A stretch of DNA of 18,342 bases from an uncultured Deinococcales bacterium. Lineage in GTDB: Bacteria; Deinococcota; Deinococci; Deinococcales; JAAFIG01. Shown here piece by piece: positions 2,396 through 17,114 of the stretch. A program made the position numbers and the translations under genes. Each line of letters opens with the position of its first letter. Positions within the stretch are counted from its first letter, which is position 1. The notes beneath the pieces were generated by a model, which saw only the letters and a program-made list of their open reading frames with translations, made no database searches and was not told the origin of the DNA. The stretch spans positions 1 to 18,342 of the forward strand of contig CAXTKV010000039.1 in assembly GCA_964244895.1 (NCBI GenBank), in the 5' to 3' direction.

Positions 2396-2452
2396 GAACA
2401 CCGTCCCTAACGCAAAATGCTGGTCAGTCAATATGCCGTCCCTGACGGTGTT
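2396..2452. repeat. Paired-palindrome intergenic element, copy 1 (35-bp spacing)
   Basis: GAACACCGT-CCCTA-ACGcaaaat ... atatgCCGT-CCCTG-ACGGTGTT; centres 2407 and 2442. Confidence 0.8.
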
Positions 2453-2615
2453 GTTTGTGGTCGGACAAAACAGTCCGTGTGAGCGCTGAAAGGACGCTTC
2501 GGGCGCGATGCGACTTCGCGGGGATCGCCCAGAATTCACTCTGGGTTCATGCCGACGCCTCACACTCCGTGAGGCTCGGCGATCGCAACGATCTCGAGAC
2601 CATCAAGGAGGAAAC

Positions 2616-2942
2616 ATGAAACTTTCTCGCGCTCTGATCGGTTCGGTTCTCACGCTCGGTTTGATCGGCGCAACGTTCGCGCAGACCACCCCACCCGCAC
2701 CGACGCCACCAGCAGCCACCCCGCCCGCCACCATGGCGCCCGCCACCTGCTCGGTGAGTGCCGTCAACGTCAACACGGGCACGCTGGCTGACCTGGAAAA
2801 AATTCCGGGATTGGGCGCGAAGCTCTCAGCCGCGATCATCGCGGCGCGACCCTTCAAGGACGAAGCCGAACTAGTCAAGAAGGTCAAGGGCATCGGAACG
2901 AAAAACGTCGTCAAGTTTCGCCCGTGCTTCTTGTACAAGTAA
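2616..2942 (+). CDS. Secreted helix-hairpin-helix (ComEA-like) DNA-binding protein
   Basis: AAGGAGG RBS at 2605-2611, then ATG 2616 (108 aa). Signal peptide MKLSRALIGSVLTLGLIGATFA, Pro/Ala/Thr linker, and HhH domain VNVNTGTLADLEKIPGLGAKLSAAIIAARPFKDEAELVKKVKGIG. Confidence 0.85.
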   Translation: MKLSRALIGSVLTLGLIGATFAQTTPPAPTPPAATPPATMAPATCSVSAVNVNTGTLADLEKIPGLGAKLSAAIIAARPFKDEAELVKKVKGIGTKNVVKFRPCFLYK

Positions 2943-2954
2943 GTCCAATCCACG

Positions 2955-2991
2955 AACGCCCCGCGCTCGAGACTCGAGCGCGGGGCGTTTT
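2955..2991 (+). terminator. Intrinsic terminator-like hairpin between convergent genes
   Basis: Perfect 17-bp inverted repeat AACGCCCCGCGCTCGAG-a-CTCGAGCGCGGGGCGTT running into TTTT, 12 nt after the HhH gene stop. Confidence 0.8.
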
Positions 2992-3030
2992 GCTGCGATG
3001 ACCTCGAGCGATGGATCGAGAATTGAGAAG

Positions 3031-3387
3031 TCACTTTTTGGTTTTAGACGGTACTTTCGGGCGTTTTGCGCGCCGCGCAGCCTCGAGCGCAGCCGTCGCC
3101 CACGGCTCGAAACGCTCCCAGTCTTCCAGGCAATCCGGGGCGCGACGGTAACTCATTTCCACGCGTCTGTCCCCGGCTTCGTAGCTGAAGGCTTCCAGGT
3201 CGTCTCGCACGAAATCCGGTTTGTTGAGGGCGTCCACCTTGAGGTACAGCACCTCAGCGACGACCAATCCGAAGGTCAGCCCGTCAATCGAGACGTTCCA
3301 ACCGCCGAACATGGCCTTGGCGCGCACCGGGCCGAGCGGGTTCAGGCTCTCGAGGACGAACTCCACGAACGGGCTGGTTTTCGGCAT
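3031..3387 (-). CDS. TfoX/Sxy N-terminal domain protein
   Basis: 118 aa. FVEFVLESLNPLGPVRAKAMFGG...FGLV...LYLKVD...F.Y...MSY pattern typical of stand-alone TfoX_N proteins. Confidence 0.9.
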   Translation of the reverse strand: MPKTSPFVEFVLESLNPLGPVRAKAMFGGWNVSIDGLTFGLVVAEVLYLKVDALNKPDFVRDDLEAFSYEAGDRRVEMSYRRAPDCLEDWERFEPWATAALEAARRAKRPKVPSKTKK

Positions 3388-3393
3388 GGGCGG

Positions 3394-3399
3394 ATTCTA
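3394..3399 (-). promoter_or_regulatory. -10 box (TAGAAT) of a leaderless TfoX-N transcript
   Basis: Minus strand reads TAGAAT-ccgccc-ATG. Confidence 0.75.
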
Positions 3400-3450
3400 C
3401 TGGCCTGAACTGCGCGAGCCACGGACGCGTGCAACTCGAGATCGCGCACC

Positions 3451-3500
3451 AGAGCACCATCCAGCACGCAAATAAAGAACACCGCCCAGGACGGTGTTCT
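3451..3500. repeat. Paired-palindrome intergenic element, copy 2 (25-bp spacing)
   Basis: AGAGCACCAT-CCAGC-ACGcaaat ... AGAACACCGc-CCAGG-ACGGTGTTCT; centres 3463 and 3488. Confidence 0.85.
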
Positions 3501-3529
3501 CGAGAGTTGAACAGTTAGAAATACGGCCT

Positions 3530-5125
3530 TCAGCGCTTAGCAACCAGTTGGCGCTCGAGTTCGTCGACGCCCGCGTCACCCTCCAGGGCGGGATCGCTGT
3601 AGGCGGGTGCGGAAATCTCGTGGTAGTCCAGACCCTCGATCTCCTGGTGCGGTTTGACGCGCATGCCGATGGTCGCGTCGATCAGCCGAAACATGATGTA
3701 GCTCGAGGCTCCGACCCAGACGATGTTGGCGACCACGCCGATCAGCTGCGCCAGAAACTGTCCGTAACCGCCGTACATCAGTCCCGTCACGCCGCCCGCG
3801 ATGCCGTTGAAGCCGTTGCCGTAGGTGCCGTCCGCCAGAATGCCGACGCTCAGCACACCCCAGATGCCGTTGACACCGTGGACGGCGATGGCACTGACCG
3901 GATCGTCGAGCTTGAGTTTGTGTTCGATGAAAACCGCGGCGGAGACGTACAGCAAGCCGGCCACCGCGCCCAGCACCACGGAAGCGGGCGCACCGATGAA
4001 GGCTCCGGACGCGGTCGTGGCAACCAGTCCGGCCAGCATGCCGTTGGCGGTGTGTCCCAGGTCGATCTTGCCCAGCAAGGCTGCGCTGAACAGTCCGGCG
4101 GACAGCATTCCGGCGGCGGACGTGACCATCGCGCTGACCGCGACCGTGACCAGTCGCAAATCCGTTCCGGCCAGCGTGGAACCGGCGTTGAAGCCGAACC
4201 AGCCGAAGGCCAGGATGAACACGCCGAGCATCGCCATCGGTTGGTTGTGGCCGGGGATCGATCTGACCGAGCCATCGCGCCCGTACTTGCCGATGCGCGG
4301 ACCCAAAACGATCACGCCCATCAAAGCCATCATGCCGCCCGTCAGGTGAACCACGCCGGAACCCGCGAAATCCACGTAGCCGTGACCGAGGCCAAAATTC
4401 TGGCCGAGCGTCGAGAGCCAGCCGCCACCCCAGGCCCAGCTCGCGAAGACCGGGTAGATCACCATCGAAGCGATGAACCCGTAGACCACGAAAGCGGACA
4501 GTTTCCAGCGTTCGGCCAGCGCGCCCGTCGGGATGGTCAAGGCGGTGTCCATGAAGACCAGGTGGAAGAAAAACAGCGCGAAGGTCGGCACGTCGTAGGC
4601 GTCACCGGACAACCCAAATCCCGAAAAACCCAGCAGCCCGAAAAATTTGTCACCGATGGTCACGCCCAGCATGTGCGAGAGGTTCGCACCGCCACCCAGG
4701 GTACTCGAGCCGCCGGAACCGCCCATCTGAAGGGCGAAACCGACCAGCAAGAAACCGATGATGCCGATGCCATAAATCAAGAAGTTCATGATCATCGTGT
4801 GCCCGGCGTTCTTGGCGCGCGTGAAACCCGTCTCTGCGAGCGCGAAACCGGCCTGCATGAACATCACCAGGAAGGCCGCGATCATCGTCCAGATGATGTT
4901 AATGGCAATTCTGCCCTGCCCCAACAGCGCCCCGAGTTCCGCCAGCGTCGGTTCGCCGGGCGTGGTGAGCTTCAAATCCTTGACAGTTCCGGTAGCCGTG
5001 CCGGACGGGTCGGTGGCGAAGGCCAGACCGCCGAAGACGGCGCCGACGATCAGCGCGGTCAGGATGCGAGCCTTGAGCGGGATTCCAGTTGCCCGAGCGG
5101 CGTTGGGCTCGAGGTTCGGCCTCAC
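3530..5125 (-). CDS. amt: Ammonium transporter (Amt family) with N-terminal extension
   Basis: 531 aa. FMQAGFALAETGFTRAKN, TGALAER, WAWGGGWL, DFAGSGVVH, GPRIGKY, FGWFGFNAGS, DDPVSAIAVHG (both pore His present), MRV...EIEGLD. AGGAG RBS; the GTG start overlaps the upstream TGA (GTGA at 5122-5125). Confidence 0.97.
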   Translation of the reverse strand: MRPNLEPNAARATGIPLKARILTALIVGAVFGGLAFATDPSGTATGTVKDLKLTTPGEPTLAELGALLGQGRIAINIIWTMIAAFLVMFMQAGFALAETGFTRAKNAGHTMIMNFLIYGIGIIGFLLVGFALQMGGSGGSSTLGGGANLSHMLGVTIGDKFFGLLGFSGFGLSGDAYDVPTFALFFFHLVFMDTALTIPTGALAERWKLSAFVVYGFIASMVIYPVFASWAWGGGWLSTLGQNFGLGHGYVDFAGSGVVHLTGGMMALMGVIVLGPRIGKYGRDGSVRSIPGHNQPMAMLGVFILAFGWFGFNAGSTLAGTDLRLVTVAVSAMVTSAAGMLSAGLFSAALLGKIDLGHTANGMLAGLVATTASGAFIGAPASVVLGAVAGLLYVSAAVFIEHKLKLDDPVSAIAVHGVNGIWGVLSVGILADGTYGNGFNGIAGGVTGLMYGGYGQFLAQLIGVVANIVWVGASSYIMFRLIDATIGMRVKPHQEIEGLDYHEISAPAYSDPALEGDAGVDELERQLVAKR

Positions 5126-6606
5126 GAGTTCTCCTGGTTGCGCCGCAGACGGCTGACCATCGATTTCAAGGACACGCGCATGCGCTCGAGCGAGTGCAGC
5201 AGATCGCCGATCTCGTCGTTGCTGGTCGGTTCAATCTGGCGATCCAGGTCGCCCAGGCTGATGCGGTTGGCCTGATCGGTCGCGGCCAGAATCGGGCGCA
5301 GCAACCGGGCGCTCAAGCCGGTGGCGAAGGCGGCAGCCAACCCGAGCGCCAGACCCATCACGATCAAAATCGGCGTCAGCACGCTCCAGAGTTCGTTCGA
5401 GACGACGCTGCCTTGAAGACCCACCAGCACGGAACCCAGGCGTTTACCGGATGCATCCTTGACCGGACTGATGGCCGCCACGAACTGACCGTTGCCGACC
5501 TGAACCATTCCACCCTGAGCCTCGAGCCGGGTTCGTTCGGTCGCCCAGACTGCTTCGAGTGCGCCGCGATCCACGTCCGCATCGGCGGCCTTGCCGAGAA
5601 TCGTGGTGTCGTCCTTGTCGACCACCATCACGAAGCTCGCCTCACCGTTGGCTCGAGCCTGCCACGCGATGCTATCGGCAGCCGCCATGTCGCCGGTGGA
5701 CATCGGGCGGTAAAGCGTGCTGGCGACGTTGGTGCTTAGGGTCGAAGCTTCGCCAGCCACCAGGCGCGTGATCTGGCGGGGCAGCGCCCACGACAGGTAA
5801 CTGACCAGCACCACCACGACCAGCACCAGCGGCACGATCAAGGTCAGCAAGGTCTGGGAGCGCACGCTCGAGCGGCGCGCTTTGCGGTCGCGGGCGCGCC
5901 GGGCCTGCGGTGGAAGGTCGTCTCGCATGACGGCGGCGGTGGCGCTCGCGCCGTAAGCCGCGAACGGATCTTCGGATGGGCCGAAGCTCGGTTGGGCCGA
6001 GGCGTCGATGGGCTCGAAGGCATCCGATCGAGCGGTCGGTGCGGCGAACGGGTCGCTACCAGCCAGGGTCGGCGGGGCGAACGGGTCTTCGTTCAGGTTG
6101 GTGGGCAAGGTCGGGGCGGCGAAGGGATCGGATTCGGGCGCATCCAGAAAGCCGCCTGCCGGGTGCGTCACCTGCGGCATCCCGAACGGATCCGCTTCTG
6201 GCGCGCGCCGTTCAGTCGGCGGGCTGCCGGGGCCGCGACCGAGCGGCGGGGCAAACGGGTCGGTCGCCGTTTCGACGGCGACCATCTGCGGTACGAACGC
6301 GGGCATGGGTGCGGGCGCATCGGCGTGATCTGACGCGATCTGATCGCTGGAATCGAAGACTTCCTCGATGGTCGGGTCGGGCGCGACGACTTCGACGGTC
6401 AAACCGGCGTTCCTGAGGATCGCGGCGACCCGATCGGCGTGCGGTGCGCTTCCGGCGCGCGCGATGCGCGAGCCCGCCTCTCGGGACATGAGTTGCTCGA
6501 GTTTCTCGGCGGAACCGCCGAGTTGAGCGGCGGCTTTGGCGGCGATACGACCTCGCTGGTCGGCGTCGAGGATCGGTTTGAGCAATCGGATGGTGTACTG
6601 CTTCAC
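5122..6606 (-). CDS. Membrane protein: N-terminal small alpha/beta domain, DPF-repeat linker, TM, extracytoplasmic sensor-like domain, TM, C-terminal HAMP, no output domain
   Basis: 494 aa. AGGAGG RBS at 6615-6620. Two hydrophobic helices (TLLTLIVPLVLVVVVLVSYLSWAL and VLTPILIVMGLALGLAAAFATGL). HAMP motif RPILAATDQANRISLGDLDRQIEPTSNDEIGDLLHSLERM, and the protein ends about 18 aa later. Confidence 0.88.
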   Translation of the reverse strand: MKQYTIRLLKPILDADQRGRIAAKAAAQLGGSAEKLEQLMSREAGSRIARAGSAPHADRVAAILRNAGLTVEVVAPDPTIEEVFDSSDQIASDHADAPAPMPAFVPQMVAVETATDPFAPPLGRGPGSPPTERRAPEADPFGMPQVTHPAGGFLDAPESDPFAAPTLPTNLNEDPFAPPTLAGSDPFAAPTARSDAFEPIDASAQPSFGPSEDPFAAYGASATAAVMRDDLPPQARRARDRKARRSSVRSQTLLTLIVPLVLVVVVLVSYLSWALPRQITRLVAGEASTLSTNVASTLYRPMSTGDMAAADSIAWQARANGEASFVMVVDKDDTTILGKAADADVDRGALEAVWATERTRLEAQGGMVQVGNGQFVAAISPVKDASGKRLGSVLVGLQGSVVSNELWSVLTPILIVMGLALGLAAAFATGLSARLLRPILAATDQANRISLGDLDRQIEPTSNDEIGDLLHSLERMRVSLKSMVSRLRRNQENS

Positions 6607-6701
6607 GGGTCTTGCCTCCTTTGTGCTGATCCTCGCGACTGCCTTGGCGGTCGTTGCCGTGCGGATCTGAACGGGTCTATTAAGGCTCCGGCTCGGACGG
6701 C

Positions 6702-7499
6702 CTAAATGCCGAATCGCGCCCTGATCTGCTTGAGCCGCTCGATGAAGCGGGTGCGGGCGGTCGGATCGTCGATCGCGTCCGCCAGCCCGCGCAAGAAGTT
6801 GCTGAACCCTTCCGGGCGCAGACTGCGGGTGTCGATGGAGAGGTTAGCGGCCACGTCGTCGAACAAGAATTCCGCCGCTGGTCCCAGAATTTCAGCGTAA
6901 ACCTGTCTGAGCGCGCCGACGAAGGCCGGATCGACCGAAGCGCGGCGGACGGGTTCGATCAGTTCGATCATCTTGCGCGCCAATAGGGAGCGGGCCACGG
7001 TCTGCAACTGATCGCTGTGCCAGCCGAGTTCCGCCCCGAGTTTCTCGAGGCTGACGCTCGGGTTAATGCGGGAAAGCAGCATCAGCTCCGCACCCTCGAG
7101 CACGAGTTGAACGTCGGCGGGTTGCGGCCTGACGCGGGCGGCCAGCGATACATCGACCGTGCTGCCCGGTTCCTGAACTGCGCCGTGGTCGATGGCCACC
7201 GCGATTGAAAGCGCCAGGGTCTCGAGGGATTCGGTGATGGTTTCCTTGTTGCTTTGCTCGTTGGCGCGGAAACTGAAGGTGCCTTCGCTCCAGGTGGTCA
7301 TGTGCGCCACGGCGCGCTCGCCGGTCAGATCACCGATTTCGGCGTGAATCACCTCGCCGCTGCGCAAATAAATCGAACCGGTACGGTTTGCGGATTGGAG
7401 CGCCAGCCTGCCGACCGCTCGGGTGCTCTTGAGGTAACTGAGCAGGCTGAAGAGTTGTTCTTTGCCGAGCGCACCGCCGAGGCTCTCTACAGAGGACAT
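6702..7499 (-). CDS. DUF4388 (PatA-N-like) domain protein with central wHTH-like and C-terminal helical domains
   Basis: 265 aa. N-terminal LGGAL...LFSLLSYL...VGRLAL...GSIYLRSGEVIHAE...GERAVAHMTTWSEGTFSF matches the DUF4388 pattern. C-terminal VDPAFV..LRQVYAEILGPAAEFLFDDV...LADAIDD..R..F. Confidence 0.85.
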   Translation of the reverse strand: MSSVESLGGALGKEQLFSLLSYLKSTRAVGRLALQSANRTGSIYLRSGEVIHAEIGDLTGERAVAHMTTWSEGTFSFRANEQSNKETITESLETLALSIAVAIDHGAVQEPGSTVDVSLAARVRPQPADVQLVLEGAELMLLSRINPSVSLEKLGAELGWHSDQLQTVARSLLARKMIELIEPVRRASVDPAFVGALRQVYAEILGPAAEFLFDDVAANLSIDTRSLRPEGFSNFLRGLADAIDDPTARTRFIERLKQIRARFGI

Positions 7500-8551
7500 A
7501 CGACCTCGAGTTGCGCTTCGCGCCAGACGGACAGGTGTTTATCGCGCACGGGAATCAAGAGCGGTCTGACGGCGGCGCTCGGGATGCTGAGTTTGCCCAG
7601 CACGCCGTGGTACGCCGCGCCGAGTGCCTCGAAGGCCGCCCCGTTCGGACGCAGAATGCTCAGTTTGCCGGAAGCGTAGCGCACGTCTTCCAGGAAGGGA
7701 TCGAGCTGCGGGTAGCGGTCGACCAGTTCCAGGCAAACGGCGCGCCAGGCGGCATCGAAGCTGCCCTTGCCGCGCGCGCTGTCGGTGCGGTATTCGGTGA
7801 ACTCGAGGACTTCGCGCCAGGCGGCGATCAGGTCTGCCGGGCGGGCTTGCGGATTCTGGGCGACCTGCGGCGCGGGCTCTGGTTGGGCGGCGGGCGCTGG
7901 TGCGGCGGCTACTTGCGAAGCGGTGGTCGGGTTTTCGCGTCCCAGCACGCGCAGCACGGCCTCCGGCCAGCGCGAGGCGATCTTCAGCATGTTGAGCGCG
8001 TCCAGTCCGAAGACGGGCGGCGCGTCCGGCGCGCTGAAGCTGATCAGGACTTTCAGGCCGTACTCGAGCAGCACGCTGCCCGTACCCCGGTCGGTCTGAA
8101 GTTCCAGTTCGCCGGTGTGCGCGTTGACCTCGAGTTCGTCCAGCCACTCGAGCAGCAAGGCCGGGCTGGCCTGTGCGGTGCGCAGCAGGTTCCAGTTTGT
8201 TGCACCGATCGAGAGTCGGGCCACGGCGGTCTCCAGGGCGTAGACGCTCAGTCGCGCGTCGGGCTCGCGCAGCAAATCCGACGCGCTCCCCGCGCCGAGC
8301 GCCCGGTGCCAGCCATCCGCCAGCAGGACGTGGCTGCCGACCGCCTGGGATTCGAGGTAATAGACCCGACCGAGCCGCTCACCGGTGACGATCTCGACCA
8401 CGCCGCAGAAGCCGCCCCGGTTGGTCAGGTCGTCCTCGAGCATCGTCCAGTCCACCACGTGGCTGGGCAGATCCCGGTAGATCACGCGGTCCGTCGGCAG
8501 GGGACGCCACTCGCGTACTGCCGGTTTCTGACGCAAGTTTGAGTCGTTCAA
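7487..8551 (-). CDS. Hypothetical protein with two divergent DUF4388-like repeats and a C-terminal helical domain
   Basis: 354 aa. GAGGA RBS 7 nt before TTG. Two similar segments: DWTMLEDDLTNRGGFCGVVEIVTGERLGRVYYLES and LLEWLDELEVNAHTGELELQTDRGTGSVLLEYG. Ala/Pro/Gln linker; 13-nt overlap with the next gene. Confidence 0.75.
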   Translation of the reverse strand: MNDSNLRQKPAVREWRPLPTDRVIYRDLPSHVVDWTMLEDDLTNRGGFCGVVEIVTGERLGRVYYLESQAVGSHVLLADGWHRALGAGSASDLLREPDARLSVYALETAVARLSIGATNWNLLRTAQASPALLLEWLDELEVNAHTGELELQTDRGTGSVLLEYGLKVLISFSAPDAPPVFGLDALNMLKIASRWPEAVLRVLGRENPTTASQVAAAPAPAAQPEPAPQVAQNPQARPADLIAAWREVLEFTEYRTDSARGKGSFDAAWRAVCLELVDRYPQLDPFLEDVRYASGKLSILRPNGAAFEALGAAYHGVLGKLSIPSAAVRPLLIPVRDKHLSVWREAQLEVVCPL

Positions 8552-8736
8552 GGTCGCATCCTCGTTGATCTTCTCGTCCGCAACGCCTGGGCAGCCGCGA
8601 CGGCAGTGCGTTTGGGGGGTTATACGGGATGCGCTGTGACGAAACTATTACAGACTTCAGCGCTGAGTCTGACACGGCTCCAATCCAACCCAAGTGGTTT
8701 TTTACCCGAGCGCCAATGCTCAGGCCGTGCGGTACC

Positions 8737-8784
8737 GAACACCATCCGGTACACGAACTAAAAACGACGTGCTGGACGGTGTTC
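8737..8784. repeat. Paired-palindrome intergenic element, copy 3 (25-bp spacing)
   Basis: GAACACCAT-CCGGT-ACacg ... gaCGT-GCTGG-ACGGTGTTC; centres 8748 and 8773. Overlaps the chrA stop codon. Confidence 0.8.
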
Positions 8785-9967
8785 AGCCCACAAAGCCGCG
8801 AAGCCAGCCGACCAGCCCGCCGCCCAACACCAACCAGACCGAGTTGAACTTGAACCGCACCAAGATCGCCAGGCTGATCAGCGCCAAGCTGACGGTCAAC
8901 CCGTCCACCAGCGCCGCGCGCCCGAGCTCGAGCGTGACCCCGGCCATCAGCCCGAGGGCCGCCGCGTTGATCCCATCCAGCAGTGCGCCCGTCCAGCGGT
9001 TGGCGCGCAATCGCGGCACCAGCGCCCCGGTCAAACCGACGAAGCCGAAGGCCGGACCAAAAATCGCGATGGTCGCCAAGGCCGCGCCCGGCAGGCCCGC
9101 GATCACGTAGCCCACGAAGGTCGCGCTCGAGAACAGCGGCCCCGGCGTGAACTGCCCGACCGCCACCGCGTCCAGCAGTTGGCGTTCGGTCAGCCAGCCC
9201 AGCCGCGTCACGAATTCCGAGCGCAAGAATGCCAGCAGCACGTACCCGCTGCCGTACAGGAGTGTTCCTATTTTCAGGAAACCCCAGAAGACACCGCCCA
9301 GCGTGACGCCCGAAAGCGCCGCTCCCGTCCCAGCGCTCGAGCCGAGCAGCAACAACGGCCAGGGCATCAGGCTCGAGGTTTTTGGAAATGCTCCTCTTTC
9401 CAGTCCGCGCGTCAGGATCGCGCCCAGAACTGCGCCACCGAACAGCAGACCGATCTCGTTCAGGCCCGCCGCGTAGAGCGCGACCACCGTCAGCGCCACC
9501 GCCACGGAAATCCAGGATTTGAAAGCCGCCCTGGCCAGACCGTAGATCGCGTGCCCGACGACCGCGATGATCACCGGTTTGACGCCGGACAGCAACCACC
9601 CGGCGTCCGGTCGCGAGCCGAAGCGGACGTAGGCCCAGGCGAGCGCCAGCGTGATCCCGGCGGCGGGCGCGATGAACCCCAGCCCCGCCGCCATCAGGCC
9701 GCGCCAGCCCGCCCGGTGCAGTCCGACGTGCATGACCATTTCCGTGCTGTTTGGCCCAGGAATCAGGTTGACCGCGCCCAACCAGTCCAGAAATTGCGCG
9801 TCCGTGACCCAACCGCGCCGCGTCACGACTTCCTGGCGCAGCATCGCGACGTGCGCCGCAGGCCCGCCGAAGGCTGTGAAGCCCAACTTGAGCGCCATCC
9901 GCAGGACTTCCGGCCACCTTTTCGGGTTGGGTGCATCCCGAATTGGGCTGGCGGCGCTGTCGTCCAC
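8783..9967 (-). CDS. chrA: Chromate ion transporter (long-chain CHR family)
   Basis: 394 aa with two homologous halves: LKLGFTAFGGPAAH...IPGPNSTE and FLKIGTLLYGSGYVL...DAVAVGQFTPGP. Confidence 0.96.
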   Translation of the reverse strand: MDDSAASPIRDAPNPKRWPEVLRMALKLGFTAFGGPAAHVAMLRQEVVTRRGWVTDAQFLDWLGAVNLIPGPNSTEMVMHVGLHRAGWRGLMAAGLGFIAPAAGITLALAWAYVRFGSRPDAGWLLSGVKPVIIAVVGHAIYGLARAAFKSWISVAVALTVVALYAAGLNEIGLLFGGAVLGAILTRGLERGAFPKTSSLMPWPLLLLGSSAGTGAALSGVTLGGVFWGFLKIGTLLYGSGYVLLAFLRSEFVTRLGWLTERQLLDAVAVGQFTPGPLFSSATFVGYVIAGLPGAALATIAIFGPAFGFVGLTGALVPRLRANRWTGALLDGINAAALGLMAGVTLELGRAALVDGLTVSLALISLAILVRFKFNSVWLVLGGGLVGWLRGFVG

Positions 9968-9973
9968 GGCTCG

Positions 9974-9979
9974 AGCCTA
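9974..9979 (-). promoter_or_regulatory. -10 box (TAGGCT) of a leaderless chrA transcript
   Basis: Minus strand reads TAGGCT-cgagcc-GTG. Confidence 0.65.
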
Positions 9980-10025
9980 ACCGAAGCCCGAGTCCGCGCA
10001 CGTCAGGAGCCGGTCATCGGTGCGC

Positions 10026-10031
10026 TATGCT
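10026..10031 (+). promoter_or_regulatory. -10 box (TATGCT) of a leaderless crcB transcript
   Basis: TATGCT-ctgcgc-GTG(10038), in frame with the Fluc ORF. Confidence 0.65.
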
Positions 10032-10037
10032 CTGCGC

Positions 10038-10418
10038 GTGCAAATCGGTCTTCTGATCCTGTTCGGTGCGCTCGGCACGCTCGCCCGCTACGGCGTGACG
10101 CTGCTGACCCAATCGTGGCTGCCGCGCTCCGCCCAGGATTTCCCGTGGGCGACGCTGACGGTCAACGTCATCGGCAGCTTCGTGCTGGCGGTGGTGGTTT
10201 TCCTGGCGCTCAACGGGCGCGTCTCTCAGGACGTGCGCCTGGCGCTCGGCACGGGTTTCTGCGGCGCGTTCACGACCTTCTCGACCTTTGCGCTCGAGAC
10301 GGACGCGCTCTTGACGCGCGGCGCGTGGCTGGAAGGAACGCTCTACGTCGTCGGGAACCTGCTGCTGGGCTTCCTGGCCGTCTCGCTGGGCAAGGCGCTG
10401 GCGGCGCAGTTCGCATGA
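10038..10418 (+). CDS. crcB: Fluoride efflux channel Fluc/CrcB
   Basis: GALGTLARY, FPWATLTVNVIGSF and GTGFCGAFTTFSTF signatures. Start moved from 10020 (ORF track) to GTG 10038 on the basis of the leaderless -10 spacing (126 aa). Confidence 0.95.
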   Translation: MQIGLLILFGALGTLARYGVTLLTQSWLPRSAQDFPWATLTVNVIGSFVLAVVVFLALNGRVSQDVRLALGTGFCGAFTTFSTFALETDALLTRGAWLEGTLYVVGNLLLGFLAVSLGKALAAQFA

Positions 10419-10420
10419 GA

Positions 10421-10464
10421 AACACCGTTCCGGACAGCCGTTTGAAGTGCCGTCCAGAACGGTG
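10421..10464. repeat. Paired-palindrome intergenic element, copy 4 (25-bp spacing, degenerate)
   Basis: AACACCGT-TCCGG-ACaG ... gtgCCGT-CCAGA-ACGGTG; centres 10431 and 10456. Starts just after the crcB stop. Confidence 0.7.
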
Positions 10465-10521
10465 CCGCCTCCGAGGGCCGAATTCACGTTCCGTTCAGTT
10501 CCAACCCAGAGGATTCAGGGC

Positions 10522-10980
10522 ATGAGAATCAATCCGATGGTGCGCCTCGGCGCGGTTGGGGTCGTGGCGTTGATCGCGTGGGTTTTGAGATCCCAACCGA
10601 ACGCGGCGCAGGCCATCCCGAACCAGACGACCGCAACGAACTCGAACCGGGCGACTGCTCCCGCAAACTCGAGCCTGATCGTCGAGAACCAGACGATCTA
10701 CGACCTGGACGGTCGGGTGGCCTACCGGGGCGACGTGGACTTGCGACCGACACTGGCGCGCATTCAAAGCGGACAGCGCGACCAGCACCGCACCGACGGC
10801 GCGATTCACCGCAACCGCGAGGGCAGACTGCCGCGCCGACCCGACCCCGAGTACTACCGCGAATACGTGGTGCGGACACCGGGCTTGGGCTCCGTCGGGC
10901 CGCAACGCCTGATCGTCGGCAAGGGCGGCGAGGCGTACTACACACCGGATCACTACGCCACATTTTTGCGGGTGAAATGA
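10522..10980 (+). CDS. Exported microbial ribonuclease (RNase Sa/barnase family)
   Basis: GAGGA RBS, ATG 10522 (152 aa). N-terminal hydrophobic segment. DGAIHRNREGRLP...YYREYVVRTPG...QRLIVG...YYTPDHYATF carries the catalytic Glu (REY) and His (DHY). Confidence 0.92.
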   Translation: MRINPMVRLGAVGVVALIAWVLRSQPNAAQAIPNQTTATNSNRATAPANSSLIVENQTIYDLDGRVAYRGDVDLRPTLARIQSGQRDQHRTDGAIHRNREGRLPRRPDPEYYREYVVRTPGLGSVGPQRLIVGKGGEAYYTPDHYATFLRVK

Positions 10981-11406
10981 ATGAAATATACCGACCCAGA
11001 CGCCGCATTCCGCGCCGCGACCGATTCCGCTCAAGCCATCATCGAGGTTCCCAGCGCGAGCCTCACCGATCTCTTGATCGGACTCGAACGGGCTGGTTTC
11101 CTGGTGATCCGCGTGGATCGGGCGAAAGTCTTCAGCAAAGAAACCCTGCTGCACGCGCTGTACCAGTCCTGCCAGTTTCCCGCGTACTTCGGTTTCAACT
11201 TTGATGCCCTGGAGGAATGCTTAAACGATTTCTCGTGGCTCGAGGCGAAGGGCTTCGCGCTGGTGTTCGCCGATTTCGGCCCGCTCGAGGAGCGCGCTCC
11301 AGAGGATGCGAGAACCTTCCTGGAGATCGTTCAGACCGTCAGCGCGGCCCGGCGAGCGGATGGCGTCGAAGCCCTAAAACTGATTCTGGCTCGAGGCGAA
11401 GAATAG
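10981..11406 (+). CDS. Barstar family ribonuclease inhibitor
   Basis: 141 aa. SKETLLHAL...FPAYFGFNFDALEECLNDFSW barstar motif. The ATG directly follows the RNase TGA. Confidence 0.93.
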   Translation: MKYTDPDAAFRAATDSAQAIIEVPSASLTDLLIGLERAGFLVIRVDRAKVFSKETLLHALYQSCQFPAYFGFNFDALEECLNDFSWLEAKGFALVFADFGPLEERAPEDARTFLEIVQTVSAARRADGVEALKLILARGEE

Positions 11407-11524
11407 ACCGCCCGCAACGTCAGTCTCGAGCGGGCGATCCAAGTCCCCGAGCGGTCGATCGGGCTTCAGCGTCAGGCGCGAGCCGTACTCTCGCATCGGA
11501 TTCCCGCACGAGAACCGAGTGGAA

Positions 11525-11570
11525 AACACCGTCCAGCACGCACGTTTAAATCTGCGTGCTGGACGGTGTT
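11525..11570. repeat. Paired-palindrome intergenic element, copy 5 (25-bp spacing)
   Basis: Perfect 18-bp inverted repeat AACACCGTCCAGCACGCA-cgtttaaatc-TGCGTGCTGGACGGTGTT; centres 11535 and 11560. Lies between convergent genes. Confidence 0.9.
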
Positions 11571-11611
11571 CCCGCGGACACGAGGTTGGGCACGAGTCGC
11601 GCCCAACCCCC

Positions 11612-12448
11612 TCAAACGTCACCCGATTCCGCGCCGCCATCCAAACGGAATCGACCCAGAACCCGCTCTGCCGCGAACACCAGCGCCCAGATCGGCGCGA
11701 GCGAGGCCACCAACGCGGCGGCGGCGGTCGGCCACTCGAGCTCGCGCTCGTACGTGAAAAAATCGATCATCGAGACGGGCACGGTCTTGACGCCCAGGTT
11801 CAGCACCAGCGGCATCAAGACCTGATTCCAGCTCATGACCAGCACCACGATCGCGGTCGCCGCCGCGCCGGGCGCGATCGCGGGCAGCACGATGCGCCAC
11901 AGCACCAGCCCGACGGACGCCCCCTCGAGCCGCGCGGCCTGCTCGATTTCGAGCGGACTTCGCCGCAAATACCCGTGCAGAACGTAAGTCGCCAGGGGCG
12001 CGTAGAACCCGACCTCGGCCAGCGCCGTGCCTGGAAGCGTGTCGTAGAGGTGCAGCGCGCGCAGCGTCTCGCGCAGGGGCATCAGGTACGCGATCACCGG
12101 CAGGCTCGCCAGCACGACCAGGGTCTGCACCAGGATTTCCCGGCCTTTGAAACGCGCCCTGGCGAGGCCGTAGGCGGCTGGAAGAGCGACCAGCATGGTC
12201 AACAGGGTCGTCAGTGCGCCGAGCGCGGTGCTGGTCGCGAGCCTCGGGATGAACGCCAATCGCGCCGCGCCGATCTCGAGAAAATGCGCCCAGGTCGGCC
12301 CACCCACCCAGATTAAACGCGAGCCGGACGCCCCCAAATGCAGGCCGAACGAGGCCAGCAGCGTCCAGATGAGCGGCAGCAGGCACGCGATCAGCGCCGC
12401 GCCGATGACCGCGAATCGCAACACATTCGAGGCCCGCTCGCGCTTCAC
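11612..12448 (-). CDS. Carbohydrate ABC transporter permease (MalG-like)
   Basis: Likely start is GTG 12448, which overlaps the upstream TGA (GTGA 12445-12448); 278 aa. PLIWTLLASF, ALPAAYGLAR.RFKGR, EAA loop SPLEIEQAARLEGAS, and MSWNQ. Confidence 0.92.
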   Translation of the reverse strand: MKRERASNVLRFAVIGAALIACLLPLIWTLLASFGLHLGASGSRLIWVGGPTWAHFLEIGAARLAFIPRLATSTALGALTTLLTMLVALPAAYGLARARFKGREILVQTLVVLASLPVIAYLMPLRETLRALHLYDTLPGTALAEVGFYAPLATYVLHGYLRRSPLEIEQAARLEGASVGLVLWRIVLPAIAPGAAATAIVVLVMSWNQVLMPLVLNLGVKTVPVSMIDFFTYERELEWPTAAAALVASLAPIWALVFAAERVLGRFRLDGGAESGDV

Positions 12449-13314
12449 GCTCGAACCTCGCGCCGATTCAGCCCCAAGTAGACCGCCCCCAGCGCCAGCA
12501 CGCTGCCCGCCACCACCCAGGCGGAACTCGAGCCGAGCGCCCAGTCGTAGGTCTGGAACGCCTGCTGGTACGCGTACAAGCCCGGCGTGATCGTCTCGCC
12601 GCCTGGGCCGCCGCCCGTGAACATCAGCACCGTCTCGAACGTGCCGAGCGCGTCGCCGACCAGCAACATGCCCAGCGTCAGCAGGACGCCGCGCAGGTGC
12701 GGCAGCGCGACGTGACGCGCAGTCTGGAGCCGTGAAAGCCCCTCGAGCGCCGCCATGTCCCACAACGTCGCCGGGACGCCCATCAGGGCGGGCAGCACCA
12801 GGAACGCCACCAGCGGAGCCTTGCGCCAGGTTTCGATCAGGATCAGGCTGCACAGCGCCAGCCCCGGCCCGCGCGGATCGGGCAAGGCTGGCGAGCCGAG
12901 CACGGCGGCCAGAACGGTCACGAAACCCGATTCGCGGTTGAACAAGAAGTGCCACATCACGCCGCTCGCGATTGGACTGACCAGCCACGGCGCGAGCAAC
13001 AGCAACCGCACGGCGCTTCTGCCCCGGAACGGACGGCGCAGCGCCAGCGCCACCACCGAGCCCAACCCGATCTGGAGCCCGACCGAACCGAGCGCCAACC
13101 AGAACGCGTTCCTGATCGAATCCCGGAAGCCCGGTTGGTCGAAGGCCCGAGCGTACTGCTCGAGCCCGACGAACCGGACGTTCGCGTTTCGCAACGGATC
13201 GAAGCTGGTGAAGCTGTACACCAGGCCCGACAGCGCTGGCCAGACCATCAGCCCTGCCAGCGCGACCGCCAGCGGTGCGAGCAGCATCAGCGTCTCGAGC
13301 TTTGGGCGCGGCAC
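12445..13314 (-). CDS. Carbohydrate ABC transporter permease (MalF/UgpA-like)
   Basis: 289 aa. FVGLEQY, F..SIRN, LLLAPWLVSPIASGVMW, WRKAP, EAA-like VPATLWDMAALEG, and TGGGPG. Confidence 0.93.
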   Translation of the reverse strand: MPRPKLETLMLLAPLAVALAGLMVWPALSGLVYSFTSFDPLRNANVRFVGLEQYARAFDQPGFRDSIRNAFWLALGSVGLQIGLGSVVALALRRPFRGRSAVRLLLLAPWLVSPIASGVMWHFLFNRESGFVTVLAAVLGSPALPDPRGPGLALCSLILIETWRKAPLVAFLVLPALMGVPATLWDMAALEGLSRLQTARHVALPHLRGVLLTLGMLLVGDALGTFETVLMFTGGGPGGETITPGLYAYQQAFQTYDWALGSSSAWVVAGSVLALGAVYLGLNRREVRA

Positions 13315-13318
13315 GCGA

Positions 13319-13477
13319 TCACCGAACCCAAAGCGTCAGTGTCGAGATCGATGTCGAGATCGGTATCGAGATTCGGCGCGCGAACCGATTGGTGCTCGAG
13401 CGACCGAAGAAATCCCGGAGCCTTCTGGCGGTATGGACGCCCATGATTCGGCGTTCACTCAATGGCGGTGCAGTCAT
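13319..13477 (-). CDS. Putative 52-aa leaderless small ORF upstream of the ABC permeases
   Basis: TAGATT(13484-13489)-atcggc-ATG. MTAPPLSERRIMGVHTARRLRDFFGRSSTNRFARRISIPISTSISTLTLWVR; its TGA ends 4 nt before the permease GTG. Confidence 0.4.
   Translation of the reverse strand: MTAPPLSERRIMGVHTARRLRDFFGRSSTNRFARRISIPISTSISTLTLWVR
13340..13375. repeat. Short tandem repeat, 3 x 12 bp
   Basis: TGTCGAGATCGA TGTCGAGATCGG TATCGAGATTCG. Confidence 0.7.
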
Positions 13478-13537
13478 GCCGATAATCTACGCTCGAGCAT
13501 CGCGTCCCAGAGCGTTCAACTTGCGCTGGGACGCGAG

Positions 13538-13597
13538 AGAACACCGTCCCTGACGGCGTATTCTGATTCCAGAAAACACCGTGCAGGACGGTTTTCT
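13538..13597. repeat. Paired-palindrome intergenic element, copy 6 (35-bp spacing)
   Basis: AGAACACCGT-CCCTG-ACGGcgtattct ... AGAAAACACCGT-GCAGG-ACGGTTTTCT; centres 13550 and 13585. Confidence 0.85.
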
Positions 13598-13651
13598 ATC
13601 AAAGCTGCACAAGCCGATGCCCGCTCGCCGCCGTTGGCATAACCTGTAAGC

Positions 13652-13741
13652 GTGCAGCGCCTTCAATCTCGAGCCGTCATCCTCTACCGAATCCTCAATC
13701 CGGGTCGCGCGACGCGAACCGAAGGCCGGAGCACCAGGTGA
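13652..13741 (+). CDS. Putative 29-aa leaderless leader ORF coupled to the MFS gene
   Basis: TAACCT(13640-13645)-gtaagc-GTG. (M)QRLQSRAVILYRILNPGRATRTEGRSTR; its TGA overlaps the MFS start (GTGA 13738-13741). Confidence 0.5.
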   Translation: MQRLQSRAVILYRILNPGRATRTEGRSTR

Positions 13742-14976
13742 CGCTGTTGGCCCTGCCGGAAACGCGCGCGCTGGCCGGGTTGAACGCCGACGGACGCCTG
13801 TTGTTCGGTACGCGCGCCGTGCGAATGTTCGCCTTCGGCGCGCTGTCGGTGGTGCTGGCGCTGTACCTCTCGAGTCTGGGCTTTAACGAATCCCAGATCG
13901 GTCTGCTGTTGACGCTGACGCTGGCCGGGGACGCCGCCATTTCGCTGTGGATTTCCGGCGTGGCGGATCGGATCGGGCGCAAAAGGATGCTGATGCTGGG
14001 CGCGGCCTTGATGGTCGCGGCGGGCATCGCCTTCGCGCTGACCGGAAATTTTATCTTGCTGACCATCGCCGCGATCATCGGCACGATCAGCCCCAGCGGC
14101 AACGAAGTCGGGCCGTTCCTGGCCTTGGAGCAATCCGCCATGAGCGAGGGCCTGCCCGGCACCAGCCGCACGGCGGTCTTCGCCTGGTACAACCTGGTCG
14201 GCTCACTGGCGACGGCGCTCGGGGCGCTCGGCGGTGGTGTGCTGGCGCAAGCATTGCAGCGCGCGGGTCACGCACCGACGGACAGTTACCGCGCTGTGGT
14301 GATCGTCTACGCGCTGTTGGGCGTAGGCTTGCTGGCGCTCTTTTCCAGGATCTCGGGCGCGGTCGAGGTCGTCGCCAAACCAGTCGCGGGCTCGAGCTTG
14401 GGCTTGCACCAATCACGGAACGTAATCCTCAGGCTTTCTGGCCTGTTCGCGCTGGACGCCTTCGCGGGCGGGCTGGTGGTGCAAAGCCTGATCGCGCTGT
14501 GGTTCCAACGCCGTTACGGGGTCGAACCCGCGACGCTGGGCGCCATTTTCTTCGGCGCAAACCTGTTCGCGGGACTTTCGGCGCTGGCCGCCGCCAGGGT
14601 CGCGGCCCGGTTCGGGTTGATCAACACGATGGTCTGGACGCACATTCCATCGAACGTGCTGCTGATCCTGGTGCCGTTGATGCCCAACCTGGGGCTGGCG
14701 ATCGCGCTCCTGTTGGCGCGCTTCAGCATCTCGCAGATGGACGTGCCGACCCGCCAGTCCTACGTCATGGCGGTCGTCAACCCCGACGAGCGCAGCGCAG
14801 CGGCGGGCGTGACCGGCATCGCGCGCACCATCGGCGCGTCGCTCGCACCCGCGCTGGCCGGAGCGTTGGGCGTCTCGAGCATCGCATTTTTCCTGGCGGG
14901 CGGATTGAAAATTGTCTACGACATCGCGCTGTATCGGAGTTTCATATCCCTGCCACCGCGCGACGATGACCGCTGA
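13738..14976 (+). CDS. Major facilitator superfamily transporter
   Basis: 412 aa, about 12 hydrophobic segments. Motif A-like GVADRIGRKRML and second-half AARFGLINTM. Also GTISPSGNEVGPFLALEQ and SQMDVPTRQSY...ER. GGAG RBS. Confidence 0.93.
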   Translation: MTLLALPETRALAGLNADGRLLFGTRAVRMFAFGALSVVLALYLSSLGFNESQIGLLLTLTLAGDAAISLWISGVADRIGRKRMLMLGAALMVAAGIAFALTGNFILLTIAAIIGTISPSGNEVGPFLALEQSAMSEGLPGTSRTAVFAWYNLVGSLATALGALGGGVLAQALQRAGHAPTDSYRAVVIVYALLGVGLLALFSRISGAVEVVAKPVAGSSLGLHQSRNVILRLSGLFALDAFAGGLVVQSLIALWFQRRYGVEPATLGAIFFGANLFAGLSALAAARVAARFGLINTMVWTHIPSNVLLILVPLMPNLGLAIALLLARFSISQMDVPTRQSYVMAVVNPDERSAAAGVTGIARTIGASLAPALAGALGVSSIAFFLAGGLKIVYDIALYRSFISLPPRDDDR

Positions 14977-15012
14977 GGCGTACAGCCACCCTCGAGCACC
15001 GTGCGGTCACAC

Positions 15013-15050
15013 AAAAAGTCCGAGACTCGACCAAAGGTCGAATCTCGGAC
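15013..15050 (-). terminator. Intrinsic terminator of the minus-strand membrane ORF
   Basis: Minus strand GTCCGAGATTCGACC-ttt-GGTCGAGTCTCGGAC (15-bp stem with one U.G pair), followed by TTTTT. Confidence 0.8.
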
Positions 15051-15083
15051 GGCCCTGCTGCCCGCGCTGACGGGCAATGCGGC

Positions 15084-15905
15084 TCAGATCAGCCGACTCA
15101 AAAGGAAAAGGGTGAAACCGAACAGGGCTCCCGAACCCCACCCGCGTTTCCAGATCAGGTCACCATCTCGCGCCGACAAGGCGGCTGAGATCGTCGTGGA
15201 GAAAAACGTCCTGAGAACGCTGACCCCGGCGATTCCGGTCACGGTCGAGGCTTTGGCGAGCAAGATTTGAGATGTCAGGTTGCCCAGCAACCCACGGAAA
15301 TATTTCGGTTTGAGCATCGCTTTGCGATACTCTTTTTTGCGAAGCACAAACTTCTGAAAACCGCTTCCGGTTTTCGAGAAAAGCGCCGCCACAAAGGAGA
15401 CGACGAGCACCAGAATCGCTCCTGGGATGCCCGTCGATGCCGAAAAAGAGGGTAGATCAACACCGACCGAAATAAACAGCACGCACACCCAGGTGAACGC
15501 GTCCAGAAAGGTTTTTTTGTTCTTTTTGGTTTTGCCGAGCGGTTTCTGAGCTGGATGAAGCTGGTTGACGCAAGCACCCATGACCAGAAGCCCCACGGTC
15601 GCAACGCCGAGCGCGACCGTGCTGACCGACCGATGAAAGATCGAGATGTCCGCGATGGTGGCGAAAACGTTGCTGGAAATCGCCATCAAAATATCCAGCA
15701 TCAACATGCTGGATAGTCTGGTCTGCACCAGACTTTTGAGGACGTAAGCCAGCGTGTACGCCAGCAGCGTCACGACGAGGAGCGCGCCGTGCTCAAACTG
15801 AAATACGATTTTCCCTTCTGCCCAGGCGGAACCCGTCACGTCCGGGATGAAAAAAATCAACTCGAGAATCGACAGCAGCAACGCTGTTTTGAGATTTGCG
15901 ACCAT
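15084..15905 (-). CDS. Hypothetical multi-pass membrane protein, possibly a very divergent DMT/EamA-like transporter
   Basis: ORF is open from 15953; ATG 15905 chosen as start (273 aa). About 9-10 hydrophobic segments separated by a central Lys-rich loop. Has its own terminator. No recognisable family motif. Confidence 0.6.
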   Translation of the reverse strand: MVANLKTALLLSILELIFFIPDVTGSAWAEGKIVFQFEHGALLVVTLLAYTLAYVLKSLVQTRLSSMLMLDILMAISSNVFATIADISIFHRSVSTVALGVATVGLLVMGACVNQLHPAQKPLGKTKKNKKTFLDAFTWVCVLFISVGVDLPSFSASTGIPGAILVLVVSFVAALFSKTGSGFQKFVLRKKEYRKAMLKPKYFRGLLGNLTSQILLAKASTVTGIAGVSVLRTFFSTTISAALSARDGDLIWKRGWGSGALFGFTLFLLSRLI

Positions 15906-16047
15906 TGGTTTTTGAATTGATAAAGAACTGACTTTCGAGCGCTGGATTGTCAAAAATCGCAGCCGAGATGCCCTCGAGCCAGTCCGACCGTAGCTGCGAT
16001 CGGTCAGGGCTGTGTCTGGACACCCACAGAGAACGCACGGGTTGAAG

Positions 16048-16108
16048 TCTCGAGAAGACCGTCCAGTACGGTCTTCTCGAGATCACAGCGATGCCGTACT
16101 GGACGGTT
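16048..16108. repeat. Paired-palindrome intergenic element, copy 7 (35-bp spacing)
   Basis: Perfect TCTCGAGAAGACCGT-CCAGT-ACGGTCTTCTCGAGA, then gatgCCGT-ACTGG-ACGGTT; centres 16065 and 16100. Confidence 0.85.
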
Positions 16109-16113
16109 TGCCC

Positions 16114-16350
16114 TTATTTCGAGGCCGGAAAAGGCATCGGTTCCCAGGCGTGAATTTCATTGGTGGACAAGTTGCGGGTGCGCAGCTGATTCACCGGCTC
16201 GAGCCGACCGTGAACGTTGCGCAGGGCGGATATCACGACGTGTTCGTGCCCTCGAATCTTGACGTGAACCTCCGTGCGGGTTTCACCGTCGGCCTCGACC
16301 TCGAGCGTCCAGACGTTTTGCGGCATGAACCACATCTCTTCAATGATCAT
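16114..16350 (-). CDS. Hypothetical 78-aa protein
   Basis: GAGG RBS; ATG 16350 overlaps the TerC TGA (ATGA 16347-16350). MIIEEMWFMPQNVWTLEVEADGETRTEVHVKIRGHEHVVISALRNVHGRLEPVNQLRTRNLSTNEIHAWEPMPFPASK. Confidence 0.7.
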   Translation of the reverse strand: MIIEEMWFMPQNVWTLEVEADGETRTEVHVKIRGHEHVVISALRNVHGRLEPVNQLRTRNLSTNEIHAWEPMPFPASK

Positions 16351-17039
16351 TGGTTGACCTCTGTGGGTTGAGCCTTGGCCTGCGCGCGCAATCCGAGCGC
16401 GACCACAACGATCACGGCGACCGATCCCATGGCGTACAGCGTCCAGTCCCGCTCGAGAATCGGCAACCAGGATTGCACCAGCTTGTCCTTGTGAATCAAA
16501 TCCGCCCCGACCCAGGCGATCATGGCCGCGCCCAAGAGCGTCAACCACGGCAAGCGCGCGAACAAGCTCGAGACGAGGTTGGAACCGACCATCAGCAACG
16601 GAATCGAGAGCGCCAGCCCGACCAGCAGCAGCGCGATGTCGCCGCGAGCCGCACCGGCCACCGCCAGGGCGTTGTCCAGGCTCATGACGGCGTCCGCCAC
16701 GATGATCGTGCGCACGGCCTGCGCAAAGTTTTCCGCCTTGCCACCGACCGCACCCGGATCGTCCGAGTGATCCGCCAGCAACGAATACCCGATCCAGAAC
16801 AGGGTCACGCCGCCCAGCGCGGACAGCAGCGGTACGCGCAGCAACAACGTGGCGAAAATCGTGAACAGCACCCGCAAGCCGACCGCGCCGAGCGTGCCGA
16901 GCAGCACGGCGCGCCGCCGCAGGTGATCCGGCAAACGCGAGACCGCCAACCCGATCACGACGGCGTTATCGCCGGACAGCACCAGGTCGGCGATGATGAT
17001 CTGCAACAATCCCGTCGCTGCGGATGCCACTTCAGCCAT
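16347..17039 (-). CDS. TerC family (YjbE-type) integral membrane protein
   Basis: 230 aa. IIIADLVLSGDNAVVIGLA, GTLGAVGLRV, AVRTIIVADAVMSLDNALAVAGAA, and GLALSIPL. Confidence 0.95.
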   Translation of the reverse strand: MAEVASAATGLLQIIIADLVLSGDNAVVIGLAVSRLPDHLRRRAVLLGTLGAVGLRVLFTIFATLLLRVPLLSALGGVTLFWIGYSLLADHSDDPGAVGGKAENFAQAVRTIIVADAVMSLDNALAVAGAARGDIALLLVGLALSIPLLMVGSNLVSSLFARLPWLTLLGAAMIAWVGADLIHKDKLVQSWLPILERDWTLYAMGSVAVIVVVALGLRAQAKAQPTEVNQ

Positions 17040-17053
17040 TTCTCAAACCCATC

Positions 17054-17114
17054 AGAACACCGTCCCAGACGCAAATTATTGATGATAAACGAGCACCGCG
17101 CCAGACGGTCTTCT
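17054..17114. repeat. Paired-palindrome intergenic element, copy 8 (36-bp spacing)
   Basis: AGAACACCGT-CCCAG-ACGcaaat ... GAGCACCGc-GCCAG-ACGGTCTTCT; centres 17066 and 17102. Confidence 0.85.

Follow-up and report, generated by a model that had tools for sequence, protein, structure and literature searches.

Phased pairs of palindromic boxes across a Deinococcales genome as candidate cooperative sites for a DNA-binding protein

Why should a single contig of 18,342 nt carry, in one intergenic gap after another, two palindromic boxes set at one of a few fixed distances, whichever genes stand on either side? The contig, CAXTKV010000039.1, is the window of this study (that is, the whole stretch of DNA that was analysed) and belongs to assembly GCA_964244895.1 of an uncultured Deinococcales bacterium (5.12 Mb in 328 contigs, 91% complete), whose PheT and DdrO point to Deinococcota. 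An earlier note, made from the letters of the window, had described eight such paired boxes, and all eight lie where it placed them. Its hand-measured distances between box centres (35, 25, 25, 25, 25, 35, 35 and 36 bp) are reproduced from the centres of the boxes, 8 of the 11 gaps of at least 80 bp hold a copy, and the copies are indifferent to the orientation of the flanking genes, lying in two divergent, five tandem and one convergent gap. Eight boxes in the window match the consensus with at most three mismatches, against 0.06 expected, a number that none of 200 shuffles reaches. The answer put forward here, to which we would give an even chance, is that the pairs are selected cooperative binding sites, predicted to hold two dimers of an abundant host DNA-binding protein and punctuating the chromosome about every 2 kb.

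For the genome as a whole, boxes were scored with a trained matrix at a threshold of 13 bits, the reversed genome serving as control. At this threshold 4,929 boxes are found in the genome and 25 in its reverse; the totals are 2,088 pairs and 922 single boxes. The 21-bp box is a dyad about one variable base, AACACCGTCC-N-GGACGGTGTT, and in the oriented model its five central bases are C (0.87), C (0.84), variable, G (0.84) and G/C. The earlier note had taken these five bases to be free, which is therefore wrong, as the core is conserved in the oriented matrix and the sole variable base is the centre. Its observation that outer half-sites are better conserved than inner ones holds genome-wide, and the strong half-sites mostly face outward in pairs.

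The distances between the two boxes fall into discrete peaks near 25 and 35 bp rather than a continuous distribution, as the note had expected of a genome-wide scan. Among the 2,088 pairs, 893 are spaced at 25 bp, 160 at 26, 604 at 35 and 224 at 36, which together make up 90%, and the class means of 25.15 and 35.22 bp are 10.1 bp, or one helical turn, apart. Minor classes occur at 30/31 bp (59 pairs), 34 (49) and 41 (32); a further class near 46 bp, which had been thought possible, is absent, with none of the 2,088 pairs at 45-46 bp. Where the weak halves lie outside and the strong ones inside, 24 of 29 pairs are spaced at 30-34 bp and none at 25/26, and the weak partners of strong single boxes have their own peaks at 25/26 and 34-36 bp (107 of the 181 counted). 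The whole two-box unit measures 46-57 bp, and its copies are not clonal: 888 of 891, 603 of 603 and 224 of 224 sequences are distinct across the spacing classes.

The element is also confined to one lineage. The strict 25/26-bp pattern occurs 502 times in this genome and in none of 362 other genomes of the order, which include 18 of the same family, this genus having no second genome. Scans of metagenome and viral contigs gave no pairs, and a scan of genome contigs gave one lone box in an unrelated metagenome-assembled genome. Relatives in the family hold sparse single boxes, weakly above control (in genome G006, four in 420 kb against one in the reverse, at 16 bits). Just one complete pair was seen among the relatives (L021:1659-1704, on contig C557 of genome G005); its contig has mobile-element-like genes, and the pair was probably transferred. 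Nor does any other repeat family take the place of the element across the roughly 280 kb of relatives' DNA that was surveyed. In one public run with a relative about 93% alike, seven of the eight window copies fall within its listed collinear pieces. Separately, three genomes of genus g4 (L290:1519, L291:1519 and L292:1551) have in common a conserved single box, some 75 bases upstream of one and the same gene, and a possible reading is that this is an ancestral regulatory use of the site.

Where, then, do the pairs lie with respect to genes? The intergenic enrichment claimed for the window extends to the genome: of the 2,088 pairs, 1,960 are intergenic, 53 fall within open reading frames (ORFs) and the other 75 lie at the edges of contigs. 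Genome-wide they follow stop codons, at a median of 22-28 bases, and favour convergent gaps; among the larger gaps, most convergent and tandem ones are occupied, as are about half of the divergent ones. As many as 267 pairs lie in divergent gaps, and others within operons and within genes, one of them between genes that we take from their sequence to be rpoB and rpoC. Because some 2,100 sites adjoin unrelated genes, the pairs do not constitute a regulon, in agreement with the earlier note. Two places may be mentioned in passing. An array of about 24 tRNA genes (G000:C151:8000-11700) is interspersed with paired boxes, and a region with dnaA-like and chromosomal parB genes (G000:C58:8552-16864) is pair-free for 8.3 kb, strong single boxes being present.

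The spacing of the pairs along the DNA was examined by permuting which gaps are occupied, within sets matched for size and orientation, over 3,202 gaps in element-rich contigs of at least 8 kb. The coefficient of variation of the pair intervals is 0.59, against 0.65-0.74 in the shuffles (z -4.7 to -8.1), such that the pairs are overdispersed. Neighbouring pairs are depleted below about 1-1.2 kb, the pair correlation within contigs being 0.53-0.84 at 250-1,000 bp and flat past 1.25 kb, and intervals above 4 kb are likewise depleted (z -3.4 to -4.6). Control features in the same gaps, namely hairpins and CTCGAG, show no repulsion (z within 1.6). In tandem gaps, occupancy rises equally with the lengths of the upstream and the downstream gene (0.39 and 0.38; n = 2,102), and the constraint is therefore one on DNA distance, not on transcription. 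Moreover, intragenic pairs sit in holes (median 1,334 against 713 bp; 22 pairs, length-matched P 0.0006). Pair-free stretches of at least 7 kb add up to 631 kb, or 12% of the assembly, the longest being 55 kb, and they contain 9 of 11 integrase matches. Single boxes remain there at near normal density (156 against 183 per Mb), as would be expected if singles are the raw material from which pairs are made.

Of particular bearing on the origin of the pairs are those within coding DNA. Coding boxes of at least 24 bits number 49, against 2-6 in synonymous shuffles, and coding pairs 41, against 2-8. The pair in pheT (36 bp) aligns without indels to all 16 family orthologs, none of which scores above -1.8 bits at the site, and a cysteine that is invariant in the 16 orthologs is here a glutamate. 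Boxes in the genes for 3-hydroxyacyl-CoA dehydrogenase and AlaRS and in a NuoG-like gene also lie within aligned columns. Eight of the 53 intragenic pairs have an ortholog for comparison; seven of these differ by 0-8 residues and one is a full-length insertion. In the relative that is about 93% alike, three of the listed letter differences fall in the second pheT box; they alter two residues, and the box still scores 15.5 bits (a single case). The alignments indicate an in-place origin of pairs in pheT and further housekeeping genes, at the expense of conserved residues.

The question of whether the element acts as RNA or as double-stranded DNA was approached through its base pairing. Over the copies genome-wide, neither an excess of complementarity nor covariation is found within boxes. 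On the sense strand of 1,245 tandem pairs, G-U mismatches (1,182) and A-C mismatches (1,271) reveal no strand bias; beside the same pairs there is no T-tract asymmetry, the T content being equal on both sides. Copies of the 35-bp class fold worse than arm-swapped controls (-22.0 against -23.2 kcal/mol). An apparent anti-covariation at inner positions (z -6 to -7.6), at first sight a sign that pairing is selected against, was not counted, as it is mostly gone once the copies are oriented. The earlier note preferred a geometry held by protein on double-stranded DNA to an RNA hairpin or a simple MITE, and this preference is supported by spacing classes 10.1 bp apart and by the lack of within-box covariation and of G-U bias, and further by the lack of a target duplication (see below), the in-place origin in coding DNA and the even spacing. 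As a separate observation, hairpins that follow tRNA genes in relatives (L064, L069 and L245:10146) resemble one box followed by a T run.

How might such pairs work? Each box would bind one dimer, and two dimers would engage each other across an A/T-rich linker at a single rotational setting, which spacings of 25.1 and 35.2 bp share because they differ by one turn; a box on its own would be weak and serve as raw material. The gain from a second pair would saturate within about 1 kb, and it is proposed that selection therefore fills holes, using the DNA just past stop codons where possible and rewriting codons where not. New pairs would come mainly from point substitution in near-matches, assisted by patch recombination with other copies and by occasional whole insertions. 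Bound pairs may then serve as structural anchors or topological boundaries, which is the least supported step of the scheme. Taken to its full extent, the proposal is of a sequence-programmed chromatin grid: some 2,100 phased operator pairs, spaced 1-3 kb apart, would all be clamped by one protein, and where free gaps are wanting, selection for the grid would be strong enough to alter even conserved residues of essential enzymes. Other phyla may have arrived independently at a similar arrangement, spelled in different sequences. This fuller form is put forward tentatively, with somewhat less than even confidence.

Several results weigh against cooperative protein sites maintained by selection. 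Between the arms of class-25 copies the cores covary (z 8.6 and 7.9), and these copies are more stably folded than after arm swapping (-25.1 against -23.7), neither of which holds for class 35; five of the eight window copies fold well as RNA (z < -3.9). The covariation may reflect a frequent subtype whose cores match (174 of 611) or correction of one arm by the other. Some copying has evidently occurred. One pair, in a P-type-ATPase-like gene, occupies a 17-residue (51-bp) in-frame insertion relative to the one ortholog compared; element-bearing gaps exceed their syntenic counterparts in distant relatives by a median of 72 bp (range -664 to +333 over 25 gaps), the corresponding figure for empty gaps being 1.5 bp (22 gaps); and nearest-neighbour copies are slightly closer than half-swapped controls (5.8 against 6.2 mismatches). 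Closeness to stop codons and the preference for convergent gaps are traits of REP elements. The pair positions have no long-range period beyond about 1.2 kb, and even spacing and in-place origin would be expected equally of uptake sequences. The gene calls are our own (4,439 genes), made on an assembly that is incomplete and in many contigs. Finally, no cognate protein was identified, the domain scans having covered a minority of the 4,400 or so predicted proteins.

As to that protein, the XRE proteins and DdrO yielded no candidate, and neither did the three HU paralogs, of which relatives have 1-3. There are four ParB_N matches, and in a quick tree the paralog on contig C133 has a close ortholog in G006, a genome without the pair expansion. 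Clusters of boxes, taken as marks of autoregulation, indicate no protein; of the rankings by codon bias, one drifted to foreign genes and another gave no candidate.

What else could produce such a pattern? Foremost is a drive like that of the uptake sequences DUS of Neisseria and USS of Haemophilus, in which a competence or recombination protein would prefer DNA with phased pairs, and biased uptake with gene conversion would spread the better sites. The resemblance is considerable. The uptake sequences of Neisseriaceae and Pasteurellaceae number about 2,000, lie 1-2 kb apart and form inverted pairs at gene ends; DUS pairs in particular are on average about 1.5 kb apart and rare in transferred regions (PMC2397512). 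Such sequences also reshape proteins (PMC2817400), as the boxes are written into proteins here, and are depleted in foreign DNA, as are the pairs here, not the singles. A drive of this sort would explain in-place origin and the depletion from islands equally well, and the genome has a ComEC-family gene, which is, however, near-universal (10 of 14 controls). Against it, the uptake word is a polar one of 9-12 bp, whereas the box is a 21-bp dyad, and the need for phased pairs is left unexplained. A single DUS suffices for uptake, by the account in PMC2397512, whereas phased pairs dominate here, with singles as dense in islands as elsewhere. Moreover, only 53 of the 2,088 pairs are in ORFs (97% lie outside), against the 35-65% that PMC2817400 gives for uptake sequences. 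We consider this explanation unlikely, if the first to be reckoned with.

Next comes a mobile repeat of the REP, REPIN or MITE kind, mostly old and perhaps domesticated, whose spacing would reflect transposase geometry and whose even spread would reflect target immunity. The REP, REPIN and BIME elements of the GTAG and CGTC families are inverted extragenic doublets in hundreds to thousands of copies, with preferred spacings, near stop codons and specific to a lineage (PMC3116915, PMC3733652). BIMEs are also reported to bind gyrase and IHF. The inverted doublets after stop codons, the one whole in-frame insertion, the longer gaps and the common subtype with matching cores all accord with this, and CGTC-type REPs also occur without a linked transposase (PMC3733652). 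The pairs differ from these elements in having spacings one helical turn apart, no linked RAYT and no unpaired tag plus stem, nor any within-box covariation; the CGTC letters lie within the dyad and not in a tag, and positions 8 and 12 pair in 31% of class-25 boxes. REPIN doublets are spread randomly according to PMC3116915, whereas the pairs here repel each other. Almost no copies are identical, and the indel-free in-place origin in several genes, pheT above all, is left unexplained.

The traces that transposition should leave are equally scarce. No target-site duplication was found over 49 offsets, six lengths and three classes (best z 3.0), and CTCGAG, considered as one, was rejected since it occurs on both flanks more rarely than by chance (8 against 19.6 expected). 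Among paralogous flanks there are no empty sites, the two distinct two-sided matches being both filled. A Pfam search of the 91% complete genome for PF01797 (Y1 transposase) gave no match. One RAYT-like gene (L294:1665-2189, G000:C12) was found through proteins of relatives (NF047646, 52.6 bits with a cut-off of 80). A GTAG-type palindrome stands at the 5' end of this gene and a second one within its coding sequence; the gene is not flanked by paired boxes, the nearest lying about 1.5 kb away. Because this sole RAYT-like gene has a repeat of its own, the REPIN-like system that the earlier note had entertained finds no support. The 27 Y1 loci of relatives contain three weak boxes in 81 kb. A mobile repeat is, in sum, an improbable account. 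Two other repeat families were seen: a dispersed hairpin repeat (at G000:C4:36900-36950 and in some 20-60 further places) frequently stops 4-30 bases short of a paired box, the pairs near it differing in class and letters between loci, and a third, small family is A/T-rich.

A third possibility, which we regard as doubtful, is a defence self-mark, whereby a protein on pairs every 1-3 kb would shield resident DNA from a translocating nuclease or silencer, and incoming DNA without pairs would be attacked. The even spacing with its limit on long gaps, the mobile-looking stretches without pairs and a sequence private to the lineage would all suit such a mark; against this, pair-free DNA persists over 631 kb of the assembly, in tracts as long as 55 kb, and no effector was found, no search aimed at one having been made. 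Bidirectional terminators or mRNA-stabilising hairpins, to which the position after stop codons, the stable folding of several copies, the covarying class-25 cores and the post-tRNA hairpins of relatives might point, are very improbable, since the loop would change length in ten-base steps, there is neither strand bias nor U-tract, occupancy depends equally on the downstream gene, and sites also occur in divergent gaps, within operons and within genes.

Palindromic sites bound by dimers are well known from chromosome management in ParB-parS, Noc-NBS, MatP-matS and SlmA-SBS. Such systems use single sites that are placed regionally and number from a few to some tens, unlike the roughly 2,100 phased pairs that extend across the resident genome here. 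Within the same phylum, the RDRM operator of DdrO in Deinococcus (PMC8533742) is a dyad with a five-base centre and similar inner triplets; as there described, it belongs to a small promoter regulon and has different outer bases, whereas the pairs follow stop codons genome-wide. Identity with RDRM is excluded because this genome encodes a DdrO and has RDRM-like sites distinct from the pairs, for example before genes that are presumably ruvB and uvrA. HIP1 of cyanobacteria is also a hyper-abundant palindrome under selection with a proposed role in chromosome structure; it is, by the account in PMC5861425, an 8-mer with periods of 10-90 kb, whereas here a two-box unit of 46-57 bp has a 1-kb exclusion zone and no period. 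A closer analogue of HIP1 in this genome is the excess of CTCGAG, which is present in 21,883 copies (4.3 per kb), most other 6-bp palindromes being avoided. This excess is common to the family relatives (loci L021-L038, about 4-8 per kb), and the hexamer often abuts the outer box (508 of 4,158 sides).

The element thus lacks defining features of REP/REPIN, MITE, DUS, RDRM and terminators alike, and works partly like each of them. Because no known family accommodates it, it is classed here as categorically new, with REP/BIME-like repeats as the fallback class. No published description was found in the open literature, supplements aside, a search in which the repeats of D. radiodurans were not compared letter by letter.

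To our knowledge, the known bacterial nucleoid proteins have little sequence preference, or few to some tens of sites. If cooperative protein sites are the correct explanation, the chromosome would be laid out in a new manner, on a genome-wide grid of paired, information-rich sites at even intervals. Given the length and specificity of the site, a single pull-down might suffice to name the protein, which would open the role of abundant intergenic palindromes to direct testing. Were the pairs an uptake signal instead, they would represent a third independent origin of such a system, with a new architecture. There is also a warning here, in that repeats classed as REP-like from position alone may be something else.

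The individual copies in the window, none of which is assigned a strand, are as follows. The first, of the 35-bp class (2397..2452, centres 2407/2442), lies in the divergent gap between a transketolase gene and a ComEA-like HhH gene. Four of the 25-bp class succeed it: 3453..3498 (centres 3463/3488) in the tandem gap between ammonium transporter and TfoX_N genes; 8738..8783 (8748/8773), abutting the stop codon of a chromate transporter gene; 10421..10466 (10431/10456), starting two bases past the crcB stop codon; and 11525..11570 (11535/11560), an almost perfect inverted repeat in the convergent gap between a barstar-like gene and an ABC permease gene. Two more of the 35-bp class are at 13540..13595 (13550/13585), in the divergent gap between the genes of an ABC permease and an MFS transporter, and at 16055..16110 (16065/16100), in a tandem gap. 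The last, of the 36-bp class (17056..17112, centres 17066/17102), is in a tandem gap upstream of a TerC gene. A search of the window against Rfam gave no matches to RNA families.

A lone box of 16.9 bits is also present at 15495-15515, within an unannotated ORF of 289 residues. The segment 10522-11406 encodes a ribonuclease and a barstar-like inhibitor as a pair, and has been replaced or has diverged in the relative that is about 93% alike. Upstream of the ammonium transporter gene, a co-oriented cluster (5122-8551) encodes an unknown protein of 354 residues, a DUF4388 protein and a membrane protein, the last of which combines Cache and HAMP domains with a Pro/Asp/Phe-rich repeat.

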